Positions 3,008 through 44,878 of a DNA stretch of 64,000 nucleotides are shown here, in pieces. Numbering within the stretch: position 1 is the first letter of the stretch; every line of letters begins with the position of its first letter. The notes beneath the pieces are model-generated. The model was not told the origin of the DNA, made no database searches, and was given only the letters and a program-made list of their open reading frames with translations. Position numbers and translations under genes: made by a program. Origin of the DNA: Escherichia coli phage phiS; sequence record PP449093.1, one strand, 5' to 3'.

Positions 3008-5116
3008 ATGAAAATGCATATTGATAATGAAGAAGTATTTGGTAGTGACCTGAGCGGTGCGGTTGATTTTTCACTGAAAGCAAGTAGCAAGGCTTTTATG
3101 GTGCTTTCTAAGAATACCTATCAATATTGTGAGCGTGCTTGCGTCCGTGAATATTCATGTAATGCTACCGACACTCACAAAGAAGCCGGAACCTTAGACC
3201 GTCCGTTTGATATTCATTTACCGACTGCAATCGAACCGTATTTTTCTGTGCGTGATTATGGTACTGGTATTCCGTCTAAGAAAGAATTAGAACAACTGTT
3301 TACGGTTTACTTTGAATCAACAAAAGACCAGACTAATGACTATATCGGATCTTTTGGTTTAGGTGCGAAGTCTGCGTATAGCTATACCGACACCTTTACA
3401 ATCGTAAACTATTACAATGGTCGCGCTTATGGCTTTACAGCATTTGTGCAAAACTCTATGCCGAAAATGGTGCAGATTTTCGACGAACCGACCTATGAAG
3501 ACAATGGTCTGAAAATCACTATTCCGGTGAAAGAAAAAGACATTCAGACATGGCATCGAGAAGCGCAATTTGTACTGCGTCATTTTGGGGAACACAAACC
3601 TAATATCAATGCAATCGAAATTAATTATTTCCCTAGCTTTGATAATTATTATGTGTGTAATGGGCGTGATAACGATTCCTATGTAGTATATGCAATCATG
3701 GGTAAGATTCAGTATCCGATCCCGTATGAATATGTTCGCGGAACATGGTTAGAAGCTGTAAACCGCCAGCACCAGACCATTTACATTAATTTTGAGTTGG
3801 GTGATCTGGACCTGATGCCATCGCGTGAAGAAGTTCACTTGTCAATTGAGACTAAAGCGAACATCGAAAAACGTATTGCAGAAATCAATGAAATGATGTT
3901 GGAAAAGGTCAAAGAGAAGATCGCCAACATTAAAACAGAGCGTAAACTTGCGCAATTTATGAGCGAGTATTCATCGACTCAACGCAATATTATTAGCAAG
4001 ATGGGTAAGATCGGACAATGGGATGATCCGGTAGCAATCTATAATAAGTTTGTGAATGCGGGTAAAGATTCGCCTAATGACGTAGAAGGTCAGGTGTATA
4101 CTCTGTATCGTACTCGTCACACAATCAGTAAATTGCGCCCTGCTTTCGTTAGAAGTCAATACAACATTACGCATTTTGTATGGATGCATAAAGAAGATAT
4201 TCTGTGTGTAATTGATGATACCGATAAACCGAAACTGCGTGCACTGACTCTTAACGGCATGGTCCAGGAATACGGAATCAATAAAAAGGTACTTGTGTTC
4301 CGTCAGCGCAACGAAAAACATATGGAGACTTTCGAGTACATCAAACAGTATTATGATGATTCTGAAATGACCGTGATTAAAGTGTCTGAGGCCGATGATC
4401 TGCGTGCTAAAGCAGTTAAACCGGAGAAGACCGAGCGTACACAACATGAAGCGACTCCTAAGCTGCCTAACGTGTATATCATGGAAAAGATTGGTGACAG
4501 TTGGCATAAAACCAGCCATCACATGAAAGCGGCAGAGATTCGCGAGTTATCAGGCTTGCACATGTTCCGCGTAGGTGATGCATTCGAAAGCCGTAGTCGT
4601 AAATCGATCCATAGTGAAAATACATTACACACGGCGCTTGACTACTTCGGGGTAACAAAGTATATTATTACCCGTAACGAGACACAAAAATATCTCGTTG
4701 ACGAACAATTGGAATGTGCGCTAGAATTTGTTCGCGGTAAGCTGGCTGGTCTGGCTAAGAAGGTTAAGACCAATCATCTGGGGTATGGCGAATATCTGGG
4801 TGTGATCACTATGTTGTTTCATGACGATGAACTAGAACGCTGTGTTCCAGAATTTATTGACAGACTGTACGGTCGTCATTATAATAAAGAGGTTTCCAAG
4901 TTACTCCTTCGCACCCGTTGGATTATGGACGAAGAAACTAAAAAGATTTGTGATGAAAAATTCACGGCAGCAAACGAACGAATTAAAGCAGTTTGTGCGA
5001 AGTTTAAAGAGAATAGCCCGTTACTGTATGATATTGTAGATAACTGGTATCGTATTCTGCATAACGACAAACGCGCACAAGACTTTATGAAACTGGTTAA
5101 GAATGTTAAATTTTAA
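3008..5116 (+). CDS. rIIA: rIIA protector-from-prophage-exclusion protein (GHKL ATPase-like)
   Basis: 702-aa ORF; histidine-kinase-like ATPase motifs (DYGTGIP, GSFGLGAKS); sits between gp39 and rIIB as in T4. Confidence 0.85.
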   Translation: MKMHIDNEEVFGSDLSGAVDFSLKASSKAFMVLSKNTYQYCERACVREYSCNATDTHKEAGTLDRPFDIHLPTAIEPYFSVRDYGTGIPSKKELEQLFTVYFESTKDQTNDYIGSFGLGAKSAYSYTDTFTIVNYYNGRAYGFTAFVQNSMPKMVQIFDEPTYEDNGLKITIPVKEKDIQTWHREAQFVLRHFGEHKPNINAIEINYFPSFDNYYVCNGRDNDSYVVYAIMGKIQYPIPYEYVRGTWLEAVNRQHQTIYINFELGDLDLMPSREEVHLSIETKANIEKRIAEINEMMLEKVKEKIANIKTERKLAQFMSEYSSTQRNIISKMGKIGQWDDPVAIYNKFVNAGKDSPNDVEGQVYTLYRTRHTISKLRPAFVRSQYNITHFVWMHKEDILCVIDDTDKPKLRALTLNGMVQEYGINKKVLVFRQRNEKHMETFEYIKQYYDDSEMTVIKVSEADDLRAKAVKPEKTERTQHEATPKLPNVYIMEKIGDSWHKTSHHMKAAEIRELSGLHMFRVGDAFESRSRKSIHSENTLHTALDYFGVTKYIITRNETQKYLVDEQLECALEFVRGKLAGLAKKVKTNHLGYGEYLGVITMLFHDDELERCVPEFIDRLYGRHYNKEVSKLLLRTRWIMDEETKKICDEKFTAANERIKAVCAKFKENSPLLYDIVDNWYRILHNDKRAQDFMKLVKNVKF

Positions 5117-5127
5117 GAGGTGATATT

Positions 5128-5259
5128 ATGACTAAACTGACCGCTATCCAGAAAGAAACCATCCGTAAACAATACGCTCGCGGCTTGACTAAAGGCGAAC
5201 TGGCACGAATCTATAATGTATCAGACCGCACAATCCGCAAGGTTGTAGAAGCAAAATAA
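5128..5259 (+). CDS. small helix-turn-helix protein (43 aa)
   Basis: AGAGGTGA SD then ATG; LTKGELARIYNVSDRTIRKV resembles an HTH; below ORF-track length cutoff. Confidence 0.45.
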   Translation: MTKLTAIQKETIRKQYARGLTKGELARIYNVSDRTIRKVVEAK

Positions 5260-5312: not shown

Positions 5313-6314
5313 ATGAATACTATGACTAAAGCAAAAATCACCGTCTCTGACCGTAACGTTCAATGCCTGGATTCTGCGAAACAAATCAAACTGGCTAAAC
5401 AGTGGGGCGAAGGTAAGTTTACTACCCGCGAAGCACTTGCGGCAGCATTTGGTGTATCTCGTCGTACTGCTTCCCGTGTATTACTGATTCAGAAAGACGC
5501 AGTAGCGGAAGGTCGCAAGGCACTAGAAAAACGTAAAGCACGCCGTAAAACAAGTAAAGGAAAAGGCGGTGAACGCGCAAAAAAGCCCGTGACTACTACC
5601 TCAAAAATCGTAGCCATAGCCTCAACTAAGTTTATTACTATTACATGCGGTGACATTGTTTATATTGCTGATCCATCACATGTTAACTTTAAGGAAGCAC
5701 TGGAAGCAGTTAAGCAGAATGATTTTATTAAAGCAATTACGCTGATTGACATTAAGAAAGCGGTTGAAGTATATTATCACGGCGCTTTCCGTATCGAAAA
5801 TGGTATTGTGTATTATCATAATATTGTTCTTGATAATAATCTGACTCGTCGAGTTGTTGAGTCTATTAAAGAGAATAAGCCATATACGCACTATCTGAAC
5901 TTCTTTGAGAAGTGCAAGAAAAACCCTAGCCGTAAGGCGGTAGATCGTCTGTTTGACTTCTTAGAACACAACGACATTGAGATCGGGGAAGATGGTTGTT
6001 TCTATGCATGGAAACGTGTTGATGTTGATTATAAAGATTTCTTTACGCATACGTTTGATAATAGCCCAGGGCGCACGGTTAAAATGAAGCGTAAAGACGT
6101 TGGCCCAGATGATGATCGCACTTGCTCTAATGGCCTCCACGTTGCAGCGAAACACTATATTCCACACTATGGCGGTGGACGAGGCCGAATCATTAAATGT
6201 AAAGTTGATCCGCGTCACGTTGTAAGTATCCCGAAAGATTATGCGAATGCCAAAATGCGCTGTCATCGTTACTATGTGGTTGAAGATGTAACCGAAGGTT
6301 TTAGCCATTACTAA
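5313..6314 (+). CDS. rIIB: rIIB protein
   Basis: C-terminal two thirds resemble T4 rIIB from memory (SRLFDFL..IEI.EDG.FYAWK, FDNSPG, VVSIP.DY.NAKMR); start may be the ATG at 5322. Confidence 0.85.
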   Translation: MNTMTKAKITVSDRNVQCLDSAKQIKLAKQWGEGKFTTREALAAAFGVSRRTASRVLLIQKDAVAEGRKALEKRKARRKTSKGKGGERAKKPVTTTSKIVAIASTKFITITCGDIVYIADPSHVNFKEALEAVKQNDFIKAITLIDIKKAVEVYYHGAFRIENGIVYYHNIVLDNNLTRRVVESIKENKPYTHYLNFFEKCKKNPSRKAVDRLFDFLEHNDIEIGEDGCFYAWKRVDVDYKDFFTHTFDNSPGRTVKMKRKDVGPDDDRTCSNGLHVAAKHYIPHYGGGRGRIIKCKVDPRHVVSIPKDYANAKMRCHRYYVVEDVTEGFSHY

Positions 6315-6328
6315 CAGAGGAATTAATT

Positions 6329-6655
6329 ATGGTTGATATGAAAGTTACTTGCGAAAGTGCACATGTTGAAGTTGAAAGTAGCCAATATTCATTGCGTCCG
6401 TCCGGTCGCGTTACTGTGACTATGGATGATGTTGATTTGGTTAATAATGTTAGTGTTGAAGATATCGTTAATGAGTATGATCATAGCGAACTGCTAGACG
6501 CAATTCCTGAACATGTTGTGATCCAGCACGTAGTAAGCAATAATGATCCATCGACTTTCATTAAAGAATATGGCGCTGATGAAATGCTCGATGAAATTGG
6601 CGAAAAGATTGTTATTGCATGGCTTGAAAACAACGGCTATACTGTAGAACAATAA
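6329..6655 (+). CDS. hypothetical strongly acidic protein (108 aa)
   Basis: ORF with SD; about 23 Asp/Glu against 5 Lys/Arg. Confidence 0.55.
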   Translation: MVDMKVTCESAHVEVESSQYSLRPSGRVTVTMDDVDLVNNVSVEDIVNEYDHSELLDAIPEHVVIQHVVSNNDPSTFIKEYGADEMLDEIGEKIVIAWLENNGYTVEQ

Positions 6656-6663
6656 TCAACATA

Positions 6664-6686
6664 GGCCGCTTTGCGCGGCCTTTCTT
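6664..6686 (+). terminator. rho-independent terminator-like hairpin
   Basis: GGCCGC-TTTGC-GCGGCC followed by TTTCTT. Confidence 0.5.
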
Positions 6687-6700
6687 AGAGGGAATACATT

Positions 6701-6994
6701 ATGACGGTCACGGTTATTACCAAATACGACGACGAAAATGTGATTTACGGTGACGTGGTTGTTGTTCACGGTCGTAGCATGAAAGTTACTGGTAATTGTA
6801 AAGATGGTGCTATTATTTGCGGTGAATTGGTGAGAACAGTCAATCCTATCACCGACGAACAAAAGCGAGTTATTATCAGAAAACTTAAAGACAGTGGATA
6901 TTGTAACGTCGTGGTGATTCAAGAAAAAATTGAAGTAGGCCAGTTATACACAAACCAGAAAACAATTCCAGTATCAATGATAAAAGGCGGTTAA
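6701..6994 (+). CDS. hypothetical protein (97 aa)
   Basis: ORF with GAGGGA SD. Confidence 0.55.
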   Translation: MTVTVITKYDDENVIYGDVVVVHGRSMKVTGNCKDGAIICGELVRTVNPITDEQKRVIIRKLKDSGYCNVVVIQEKIEVGQLYTNQKTIPVSMIKGG

Positions 6995-7023
6995 TTTCCA
7001 GTATCAATGATAAAAGGCGGTTA
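6966..7023 (+). repeat. perfect 29-bp tandem duplication (2 copies)
   Basis: TTCCAGTATCAATGATAAAAGGCGGTTAA at 6966-6994 and 6995-7023; spans the stop of the 6701 ORF and the RBS of the 7027 ORF. Confidence 0.9.
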
Positions 7024-7026
7024 ATA

Positions 7027-7389
7027 ATGCTAGGTCATTCTAAAATAGAAGATTGCTCATTCAGAGCAATGAAAGATGATTTTTCAGTCCTGTACGCGTC
7101 TATCCGAGAGTTGTTTGTAGATTTTAAGCAATTCAGAGAATACAAAGGCGTTAAGATGCGGGAGTGGGTATTCTGGCCTTTCTATATCATTACTCTGTTT
7201 TCTATGGTATTTTGTTTTGTCGGGATCACGATCGCTAGCTTTGTTACTTGCGCTTTCCTGATTATCCGGTGTATCATGTTTGCTTTGATTGCTGCCCCGT
7301 TTATTGTTTCAATCCTTCCGTTAAAATGGCTATTGGATTGGGCTGATAAATCTGATAAAGTAAAGAATGTGATTTGTAAGCGTGTATGA
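7027..7389 (+). CDS. hypothetical membrane protein (120 aa)
   Basis: ORF with long hydrophobic segments in the C-terminal half. Confidence 0.55.
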   Translation: MLGHSKIEDCSFRAMKDDFSVLYASIRELFVDFKQFREYKGVKMREWVFWPFYIITLFSMVFCFVGITIASFVTCAFLIIRCIMFALIAAPFIVSILPLKWLLDWADKSDKVKNVICKRV

Positions 7390-7396
7390 GGTGAAG

Positions 7397-8743
7397 ATGA
7401 ATAAATCAGTTACTTACCGTAGCCTTGAAAGCATTGTACATAATGAAGCTAAGGAATATGCGATCTATTCTGCCGAGGAACGCGGGATTCCTCAATTAGT
7501 TGATGGTCTTAAACCAGTGCAACGCTTTGTTATGGAATGTGCTTTGCAAAAGAGTAAAGGCGACCGTAAGAAATTCCGTAAGATGGCAGATATTGGATCT
7601 GGTGTTGCTGAGTTGGGTTATCACCACGGGGAAACTAATGCCGTAGAAGCCGGATCACTCATGGCGAATACATGGAGCAATAATACTCCACTGCTTGATG
7701 GTCAAGGTAACTTCGGATCGCGTTTAGTCCAGAAAGCAGGTGCGGCACGTTATATCTTTGCTCGTGTGCATGAAAACTTCTTTAAAATCTATAAAGATAT
7801 GAATTGCGCACCTAAGCACGAAGATCTGGAACACATCCCGCCAGCGTTCTACTTGCCAGTTGTTCCAATGGTATTGGCTAACGGTATTAGTGGTATTGCT
7901 ACAGGGTATAAAACTGACATTTTACCGCATTCACTGGAAAGCCTTATTGAATGCACAGAGCTAGCACTTGCCGGAAAACTGGATAAAGAACCTAGTGTTC
8001 AATTCCCGAAATTCACGGGTAAAGTTATCCCACGAGATGATCGCGATGGTGTGATTCTTGAGGGTACATATGAACTAAACGGCAAGACTAAACTGACAAT
8101 ATCAGAAGTTCCTTATAAGTTCGACCGTGAAGAATATGTAGCGGTACTGGATGCACTGGAAGAAAAAGATCTGATTGTCTCATATAATGACCGTTGCTCT
8201 AAGGACGGATTCAGATTTGAAGTAACACTGAAACGCGATTATTTCAAAAGCGAAGATGAATCCGCTCGACATGAGCAGATCATGAAGGATTTTAAACTAA
8301 CGCAGTTAGTAGCACAGAATATCGTAGTGGTTAATGAACGTGGTTTAGTCGAAGTATTCGAGAAAGCGAGCGATCTGATCCGTCGATTCGTCGAAATCCG
8401 CTTAGGCTATATAGACAAACGCATTGAATTGATGCAAGCGGAAACGCTAGAAGCATACAATTATGCAATGGCTAAAGCCGAATTTATCGACCGCGTAATT
8501 AAGGGCGAAATCGAGCTACAGGGCAAGAAAAAGGCCGAGGTAATGCAATCCATCAATGGACATGAAAAACTGCGTCCATACGCCGATAAGCTAGTTTCTA
8601 TGCCATTGTATAGCGTTACTCAAGAAGAGTATGAACGACTGGTCAAAGATGCCGATAAACATCATAGTGAATATGAGTATTGGACAAAGACGACCGCAAT
8701 GAAGGAATATAAGAAAGATCTTAAAGAACTTAAGAAGGGTTGA
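7397..8743 (+). CDS. 52: DNA topoisomerase II medium subunit (GyrA-like)
   Basis: Matches T4 gp52 from memory (GLKPVQRF, LLDGQGNFGSR, ARYIFARV); ORF-track start at 7382 is GTG, ATG at 7397 follows GAGGTGA. Confidence 0.9.
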   Translation: MNKSVTYRSLESIVHNEAKEYAIYSAEERGIPQLVDGLKPVQRFVMECALQKSKGDRKKFRKMADIGSGVAELGYHHGETNAVEAGSLMANTWSNNTPLLDGQGNFGSRLVQKAGAARYIFARVHENFFKIYKDMNCAPKHEDLEHIPPAFYLPVVPMVLANGISGIATGYKTDILPHSLESLIECTELALAGKLDKEPSVQFPKFTGKVIPRDDRDGVILEGTYELNGKTKLTISEVPYKFDREEYVAVLDALEEKDLIVSYNDRCSKDGFRFEVTLKRDYFKSEDESARHEQIMKDFKLTQLVAQNIVVVNERGLVEVFEKASDLIRRFVEIRLGYIDKRIELMQAETLEAYNYAMAKAEFIDRVIKGEIELQGKKKAEVMQSINGHEKLRPYADKLVSMPLYSVTQEEYERLVKDADKHHSEYEYWTKTTAMKEYKKDLKELKKG

Positions 8744-35341: not shown

Positions 35342-35509
35342 ATGACCAAATTAAAATGTGTTGCTGTAGATTTTGAGCTAGCTGATAGCTTTGTTGTCGG
35401 TGATGTATATGATGCTCGACATGATGGGGCTTGCTACTACGTTGAGGATGAATATGGCGTAGAATGGGCTATTCTTCCTGATGATAAATGCTTTGAGGTT
35501 GTAGGATAA
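35342..35509 (+). CDS. hypothetical protein (55 aa)
   Basis: ATG after GTGAGGATTTTTATT; ORF-track start is a GTG in the SD. Confidence 0.5.
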   Translation: MTKLKCVAVDFELADSFVVGDVYDARHDGACYYVEDEYGVEWAILPDDKCFEVVG

Positions 35510-44713: not shown

Positions 44714-44878
44714 ATGAAAACTATGAATGTAAACATCCACGAAATCCATACCGAAGTATTCACCGATGAAGACCAGTTTGGTGTATGGGTAAATCCTCAT
44801 TCGATTACTATCGATATTCCTAATGACGATTATGATCCGTTCTCTCTGATTAGCGAGATTAGTTTCAATGACTTCTGA
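44714..44878 (+). CDS. hypothetical small protein (54 aa)
   Basis: ATG after AAGGAATTTTATT; below ORF-track cutoff. Confidence 0.4.
   Translation: MKTMNVNIHEIHTEVFTDEDQFGVWVNPHSITIDIPNDDYDPFSLISEISFNDF

Follow-up and report, generated by a model that had tools for sequence, protein, structure and literature searches.

A family of small acidic proteins links the rIIB region of Krischvirus phages with lambdoid prophages

Escherichia coli phage phiS encodes, just downstream of rIIB, a 108-aa acidic protein that belongs to a family of small, stand-alone phage proteins whose acidity is a selected trait. The protein was found in a 64,000-nucleotide stretch of phiS DNA (PP449093.1), referred to below as the window. 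New here are the delimitation of the family, the finding that its members have one or two modules, their shared acidity and the recurrent placement of their genes in early operons of unrelated phages; the family also newly ties Krischvirus to lambdoid prophages, Kagunavirus and Vibrio phages. We tentatively propose, at a probability of about 0.4, that the protein uses its acidic surface to bind or inhibit a host protein early and stoichiometrically, in host takeover or counter-defence.

The gene and its transcription unit

The gene and the surrounding features are as follows.

4857-4885, plus strand: sigma-70 consensus promoter-like site, TTGACA-17-TATAAT, matching the consensus at 12 of 12 positions, at the 3' end of rIIA
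5128-5259, plus strand: 43-aa HTH-like ORF (orf43) between rIIA and rIIB; RB49p274 and phi1p274; PHROG 15481
5313-6314, plus strand: rIIB; PHROG 609 RIIB, E = 3.7e-105; named rIIB in RB49 and Phi1
6317-6321, plus strand: Shine-Dalgarno sequence GAGGA, 7 nt 5' of the ATG at 6329; a ribosome-binding site is annotated likewise in Ec_Makalu_001
6329-6655, plus strand: acidic protein gene, 108 aa and stop codon; ATG start, TAA stop
6663-6681, plus strand: GC-rich hairpin AGGCCGC-UUUGC-GCGGCCU followed by UUCUU, a probable intrinsic terminator 3' of the acidic gene
7027-7389, plus strand: predicted membrane ORF of 120 aa (orf120), directly 5' of gp52, in the slot of T4 ac/52.1

A preliminary description had placed at 6329-6655 a protein of 108 aa with about 23 Asp/Glu against 5 Lys/Arg, just downstream of rIIB. 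A recount confirmed the composition, with 13 Glu and 10 Asp (23 acidic residues) against 3 Lys and 2 Arg (5 basic residues), and the position was confirmed by the PHROG 609 match of the upstream gene, whose stop codon lies 14 nt 5' of the ATG at 6329. The protein has a mass of 12.1 kDa and a D+E content of 21%. The same description had proposed that pI and charge distribution be computed; the pI is 4.09, and every 12-residue block contains 1 to 4 Asp or Glu, so that negative charge runs along the full chain. Because the charge is spread evenly over the entire chain, a reading of the protein as one with an acidic tail was dropped.

The net charge per residue of the protein, -0.167, ranks second among about 76 plus-strand ORFs of the window (the small ORFs of the window, used as the reference, have a mean of -0.024 and an sd of 0.059), and the protein is the largest of three acidic outliers. 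The other two are a 54-aa ORF at 44714-44878 (plus strand, net charge -10, PHROG 15277) and a 55-aa ORF at 35342-35509 (plus strand, net charge -9, PHROG 16302), both assigned to families without known function. Since these two small ORFs are equally acidic, acidity by itself is weak evidence of function. In size and composition (small, high D+E, pI below 5) the 108-aa protein matches the generic profile of a DNA mimic protein.

The site at 4857-4885 is a candidate early promoter of a unit made up of orf43, rIIB and the acidic gene, and the last two genes are probably co-transcribed. The hairpin at 6663-6681 would be the probable end of this unit. Its centroid structure, the hairpin alone, has an energy of -13.6 kcal/mol, and the MFE structure, which includes a second small stem, has -13.9 kcal/mol (z = -2.4). 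The hairpin is symmetric, which is why our scan listed it for the minus strand; a terminator is annotated at the equivalent position in Ec_Makalu_001. A second near-consensus sigma-70 site (11/12) is located within rIIB at 5746-5775. The 43-aa ORF gave weak matches to PHROGs of HTH DNA-binding proteins or transcription regulators (E = 1e-5 to 7e-4), and rIIB gave weak HTH Pfam matches at aa 37-57; the two proteins gave no BLASTP alignment with each other.

The order rIIA, orf43, rIIB, acidic gene, hairpin, orf97, orf120 (membrane), gp52 was the same in every Krischvirus examined. In T4, the slot between rIIB and gp52 contains denB.1, denB, ndd, stp, ac and 52.1 and is a classical plastic region of host-directed early genes. 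The operon context suggests that the acidic gene is expressed early. The 120-aa membrane ORF had no Pfam match.

The 2.1-kb stretch around the acidic gene is 98-99% identical to T4-type Krischviruses, RB49, Phi1, GEC-3S, ECD7 and PHB13 among them. Matches to the rIIB-gp52 stretch were found in 58 phage records, all with at least 95% identity, and all 58 encode the acidic protein at a coverage of at least 80%. Its orthologs include RB49p272, phi1p272 and TB34TRB_137, the first two annotated as "hypothetical protein". Against diverged orthologs, dN/dS was 0.09-0.25 (about 0.15), and the values for neighbouring genes were comparable. Annotation in RB49 and Phi1, presence in 58 of 58 records and these dN/dS values together demonstrate that the ORF is a genuine gene under purifying selection and no chance ORF.

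Two alleles of the protein, of 108 aa and 105 aa, occur in Krischvirus, and we compared the window with four phages that carry the shorter allele (Skers, SSG23, Makalu_001 and UPWr_E1). Nucleotides 6328-6477 are only 74.7% identical to Shigella phage SSG23, whereas the flanks are 93-99% identical. Against the 105-aa-allele phages, dS was 0.77-0.84 and dN 0.13-0.16 in codons 1-55. Since dN and dS are raised together there, the divergent N-terminal domain looks as if it had been swapped by recombination rather than shaped by simple positive selection. Very strong constraint acts on the C-terminal modules; in codons 56-108, dN was 0 and dS 0.13-0.25 against all four phages. Further divergence hot spots against SSG23 were seen at 6928-7077 (76.7% nucleotide identity), the junction of orf97 and orf120, and at 7378-7509 (84%), the 5' end of gene 52, in surroundings of 93-99% identity, which suggests that both are mosaic recombination patches.

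An acidic family with a duplicated helical module

Over its full length the acidic protein belongs to PHROG 14049 (E = 5.2e-66), and PHROG 7311 gave a weaker match (E = 4.5e-7). These two are the sole catalogued families for the protein, and neither is functionally annotated. The protein displays the hairpin pattern and the module of the PHROG 14049/7311 family and is matched by the family HMM at E = 2.7e-32; scanned with this HMM, the window contained no paralog. A HMMER search of 1.84 billion representative proteins gave only 10 matches at E <= 1e-3, including one spurious low-complexity match (P0015), and the true matches fell into two length classes of about 73-76 aa and about 103-108 aa. 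Profile searches of 90%-identity clusters gave about 60 clusters with profile A3 and about 96 with profile A5, roughly 150 overall. All of these clusters are 67-108 aa long, stand alone without fusion to other domains and are named "hypothetical". The family hosts are Yersinia, Citrobacter, E. coli, Lelliottia, Cronobacter, Enterobacter, Pantoea, Providencia, Proteus, Rahnella and Vibrio. The HMM also recovered ASH99361 of Kagunavirus ST20 (E = 1.3e-17) and NVP1232O_50 of Vibrio phage 1.232.O (E = 2.6e-11), and a narrow-pattern scan of 185,579 species-representative genomes gave 2 loci.

Pfam and NCBIfam scans of the window protein and of family members gave no matches. With PADLOC, the window protein and 6 of 7 relatives tested had no match at E <= 0.1, and a Vibrio member had two matches, both at chance level (E = 0.009-0.03). 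A similarity to sigma-70 region 1.1 was dropped, having been seen in 1 of 54 members at E = 0.086. Literature searches by locus tags, accessions, peptide strings and accessory-gene-screen supplements found no mention of the ORF, and the BASEL collection papers contain no Krischvirus.

All 54 aligned members are acidic, with D+E of 17-27%, net charges of -6 to -20 and pI values of 4.05-4.6. Certain alignment columns are acidic in 60-98% of the 54 members (E49 in 98%, D36 in 88% and D88 in 89%). Because acidity is kept in every aligned member despite identities of 25-45%, in a family whose divergence reaches 25-30% identity, we conclude that it is a selected trait of the family. That the members are small and always stand alone fits a binder rather than an enzyme.

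The protein is divided into three parts.

6329-6454, plus strand: N-terminal domain, aa 1-42, a predicted beta-hairpin lying in the divergence hot spot (codons 1-55)
6455-6547, plus strand: helical module copy 1, about aa 43-73, the extra copy that is missing from one-module relatives of 67-91 aa
6548-6652, plus strand: helical module copy 2 with the C-terminal GYTV motif, aa 74-108, the best-conserved part of the family

A module of about 31 aa is duplicated in the Krischvirus protein. Aligning aa 47-71 with aa 78-102 gave an internal repeat score of 48, whereas shuffled sequences scored 20.8 +/- 3.9 and 0 of 2000 reached 48. In the family alignment, long and short members differ by exactly one insertion of 31 columns, that is, by one additional module. 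The module consensus is IVxEY-x3-LLxxIG-x3-VIxWLExxGYxV, and the most conserved residues of copy 2 are L87, I90, G91, W98, L99, E100, G103 and V106.

An AF2 model built with 54 sequences was of moderate confidence (pLDDT 72, pTM 0.36), and one built with 7 close sequences was uninformative (pLDDT 44). The former predicts strands at aa 10-15 and 28-33 of the N-terminal domain around a variable loop at aa 17-26, followed by helices at aa 43-49, 52-58, 61-71, 74-81 and 83-101, which make up two three-helix units. In the family alignment, the columns of the N-terminal domain alternate between hydrophobic and acidic residues, as in beta-strands. The predicted fold of the family is thus a beta-hairpin N-terminal domain followed by one or two three-helix modules of about 31 aa.

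Relatives in prophages and virulent phages

All bacterial homologs examined lie inside lambdoid or Rac-like prophages, in the early-left operon and on the strand that runs from cI to N, as a rule 3' of N and 5' of cIII, kil, the recombination genes and int. One-module homologs were found in lambdoid prophages of Yersinia, E. coli, Citrobacter, Proteus and Vibrio, and also in Kagunavirus and Vibrio phages. In the prophages of Yersinia, E. coli and Proteus, and likewise in L039, N precedes the homolog and the cIII, kil or Rec genes follow it; the homolog starts 20 nt 3' of N in the E. coli loci and 2 nt 3' of N in L039. In Vibrio prophages it lies farther along the early-left operon, past RecT/YqaJ and ahead of Dam. 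We located marker genes in 15 further loci by tblastn (N, cI, cIII, Erf, RecT, YqaJ and Dam), and wherever markers were found the homolog was in the N-cIII or Rec interval; L032 and L033 gave no tblastn marker matches. The N-cIII placement holds for most lambdoid prophages that carry a homolog; the lambda genes found there are orf28, ral and ea10. Homologs of lambda Ral, Ea10 and Gam were found in 0 of 27 family-bearing loci (tblastn, E <= 1e-3; L002-L013 and L023-L040), an absence that is suggestive at most.

The immediate neighbours of the prophage homologs vary and include PHROG 1376, proteins with an Nmad5 domain and small ORFs. A gene of PHROG 1376 (about 320-340 aa, without known function) recurs just 3' of the family gene in many of the loci, not always adjoining it. 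No conserved partner gene was found among the prophage neighbours, and because the neighbours are unconserved and themselves without known function, guilt by association indicates only an early accessory gene. In two Vibrio prophages, a protein of 560-580 aa combines a YqaJ-type exonuclease with a T7 gp5.9 domain (5515-7254 in L010 and 5568-7256 in L011); its gene adjoins RecT, in an operon shared with a family member.

Two-module forms were found in virulent phages only: besides Krischvirus, one is encoded on a phage contig of 135 kb and one on L038, a contig of a sister T4-like lineage. In the 135-kb contig the homolog lies amid small early genes, and the homologs of Kagunavirus ST20 and Vibrio phage 1.232.O are also in early regions. 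In L038, the ortholog is 42% identical and lies just 5' of a membrane ORF (37% identical) and gp52 (84% identical), so the acidic gene evolves much faster than the core gene beside it.

Possible functions and known acidic inhibitors

In the function that we propose, the acidic gene would be transcribed early with rIIB and would give a soluble protein that binds a host protein stoichiometrically. The conserved acidic surface would mask a basic, probably nucleic-acid-binding, site of that protein, which could be either a defence component or a housekeeping protein that handles DNA or RNA. The helical module would serve as the conserved functional unit and the N-terminal hairpin as the variable part, and the protein would act as an accessory factor of host takeover or counter-defence. 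We infer the early expression, the inhibitory action and the existence of a host target, and the sequence of the protein in itself offers no clue to what that target is. The fast evolution of the gene and its mosaic N-terminal hot spot are typical of host-interaction genes. The preliminary description had suggested, from composition only, that the protein may be a DNA mimic of the Ocr/ArdA kind or an inhibitor of nucleic-acid-binding host proteins, a reasonable if generic guess. The conserved acidity, the early unit, the N-cIII position of the homologs and the unmodified cytosine of the phage DNA are compatible with a DNA mimic or inhibitor in general.

A more specific form of this proposal is that the protein is a modular nucleic-acid mimic with a new fold, in which the acidic three-helix module would be the mimicking unit, with a single copy in temperate phages and two in T4-type phages, and the fast-evolving hairpin would determine specificity. 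The protein neutralised would then be a host defence or DNA-handling protein that lies beyond the targets of Ocr, Ral, Gam and Arn and is common to Enterobacterales and Vibrio. We regard this combination as unlikely.

What is known of Krischvirus DNA bears on possible targets. RB49 DNA contains neither hmC nor glucosyl-hmC, and both HpaII and NheI cut it (PMC4041780). Krischviruses are without a known hmC pathway, and the cytosine of TB34 is canonical (PMC13390438). Fully modified cytosines were reported for the Krischvirus SAP, in contrast to the canonical cytosines of TB34, to which it is 99.96% identical; no modification pathway is known in Krischvirus genomes, and the paper gives no explanation for the contrast (PMC13390438). 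Because RB49-type cytosine is unmodified, protein-based countermeasures are plausible. TB34 carries a copy of the acidic protein that is 98% identical to ours. This phage was restricted 10-100-fold by a Salmonella type I BREX system, and 10^4-fold more without brxL, and was fully rescued only when Ocr or Sp6 Gp5 was supplied in trans (PMC11341690). An EPEC island with a type I R-M system and DarTG2 likewise restricted it, by a factor of about 10^4 (PMC12255303); this effect is not assignable to R-M alone.

These phenotypes weigh on the idea that the protein is an Ocr/ArdA-style DNA mimic that blocks type I R-M, and BREX, upon entry of the phage DNA. Its small size, its pI of 4.1, the family-wide acidity, the early position of the gene and the largely unmodified Krischvirus DNA all favour the idea, as does the N-cIII interval, which is the ral slot in lambda and in which Ral homologs were missing from the 27 loci, but this absence is uninformative without the background frequency of ral in lambdoid phages. 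Ocr gave no Pfam match at E <= 1 with the window protein or any of the 54 members, and no Ocr chain was among the PDB sequence matches at E <= 10 of the single protein and the profiles. ArdA and ArdB/KlcA gave no match in Pfam, NCBIfam and PDB sequence searches. The PDB sequence searches, run with the protein and two family profiles, gave chance matches only (bacterioferritin at E = 0.04 and an 8-oxoG glycosylase fragment), with no Arn chain among them, and fold comparison, limited by the moderate AF2 model (pTM 0.36), tied the protein to none of Ocr, ArdA, ArdB/KlcA and Arn and to no solved structure. With hhalign, family profile A4 aligned to T4 Arn (NP_049868) at a probability of 0.15% over 2 columns, and the family profile gave probabilities below 0.5% with T4 DenB.1 and Ndd.1 and 0.4% with lambda Ea10. 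Neither Gam nor gp5.9 resembled the protein in sequence or in fold. Because the PDB searches were at chance level and the hhalign probabilities were below 0.5%, the protein is, as judged by sequence comparison, outside the Ocr, ArdA, Arn, Gam and gp5.9 families; the model allows that it may have a convergent DNA-like surface. Moreover, an anti-BREX activity equivalent to that of Ocr is unlikely, because TB34 carries the 98% identical copy and yet falls to BREX restriction, from which only Ocr or Gp5 rescue it. The restriction of TB34 by the EPEC island also speaks against the mimic, to the extent that R-M contributes there. The Ocr/ArdA-like form of the DNA-mimic suggestion thus finds no support in the domain, structure and profile searches or in the BREX sensitivity of TB34, and we consider it decidedly unlikely.

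The other explanations were weighed against the distribution and context of the family. That the protein inhibits RecBCD, as the small acidic proteins T7 gp5.9 and lambda Gam do, and so protects linear or rolling-circle DNA and lets phage recombinases work, would agree with the homologs that share an early-left operon with RecT, Erf or exonuclease modules. Rec+ lambdoid phages without a known inhibitor exist (PMC12315714), and L002-L004, L012 and L039 have a Rec module without a recognised Gam, GamL, Abc2 or gp5.9. However, the family gene lies beside N or before cIII, with cIII, kil and other ORFs intervening before the Rec genes, and it co-occurs with GamL in L006 and with the YqaJ-gp5.9 fusion in L010 and L011. 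The DNA ends of T4-type phages are protected by gp2. Given also the undetected similarity to Gam and gp5.9, this reading is very unlikely. An accessory role inside the phage, in which the protein would modulate a phage protein, for example by serving the rII proteins, the membrane ORF or the gp52 topoisomerase as adaptor or chaperone, is suggested by the strict synteny of rIIB, the acidic gene, orf97, orf120 and gp52 in Krischvirus and by the two-module ortholog of L038, which likewise lies just 5' of a membrane ORF and gp52. Yet rII, gp52 and the membrane ORF are absent from the lambdoid prophages, Kagunavirus and Vibrio siphophages that carry one-module homologs, and no neighbour is conserved across the family. 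A shared partner is therefore more likely to be a host protein, and we find a phage-internal role quite unlikely. Finally, the protein could exclude competing phages or be a dispensable moron without a role in the infection of its carrier. Lambdoid early-left operons do hold exclusion genes (RexAB in L003, sieB in lambda), and the family is sporadic and rare, as the 2 matches of the narrow-pattern scan indicate. But the gene lies 3' of N in the lytic early operon, outside the repressor transcript, it is intact and under purifying selection in all 58 virulent Krischvirus records, and no PADLOC defence model matched it, all of which makes an exclusion factor or a moron most improbable.

If the proposed host-directed binder or inhibitor proves true, the family would be a further counter-defence or host-takeover family common to temperate lambdoid phages and to virulent T4-type phages, Kagunavirus and Vibrio phages. 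It may then help to explain how Krischviruses, candidate therapeutic phages with unmodified cytosine, withstand host immunity. The one- and two-module forms and the mosaic N-terminal domain provide simple handles on specificity.

Among known systems, T7 Ocr (gp0.3) and ArdA resemble the acidic protein in being small and stand-alone, with a pI of about 4, an early position and a phage DNA without protective base modification. They differ in structure, Ocr being an elongated all-alpha dimer and ArdA having three domains, whereas a hairpin and short three-helix modules are predicted for the acidic protein. T4 Arn, a DNA mimic of 92 aa that counteracts McrBC and binds H-NS, is of similar size and, too, an acidic accessory protein that a T4-type phage makes early, but arn lies elsewhere, between asiA and motA, and McrBC, which Arn counteracts, has no bearing on the unmodified DNA of RB49. 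T7 gp5.9 and lambda Gam, the acidic RecBCD inhibitors, are also small, acidic and encoded in early or recombination operons; in contrast to them, the family gene does not adjoin recombinase genes and co-occurs with GamL or a gp5.9 domain. Lambda Ral, unlike the family members, is a non-acidic protein, of 66 aa, and shows no sequence similarity to them; the equivalence of the one-module homologs with lambda ral, orf28 and ea10, whose N-cIII interval they occupy, is positional only. We class the acidic protein with the many unannotated small acidic early accessory proteins of phages, a broad and well-known kind.
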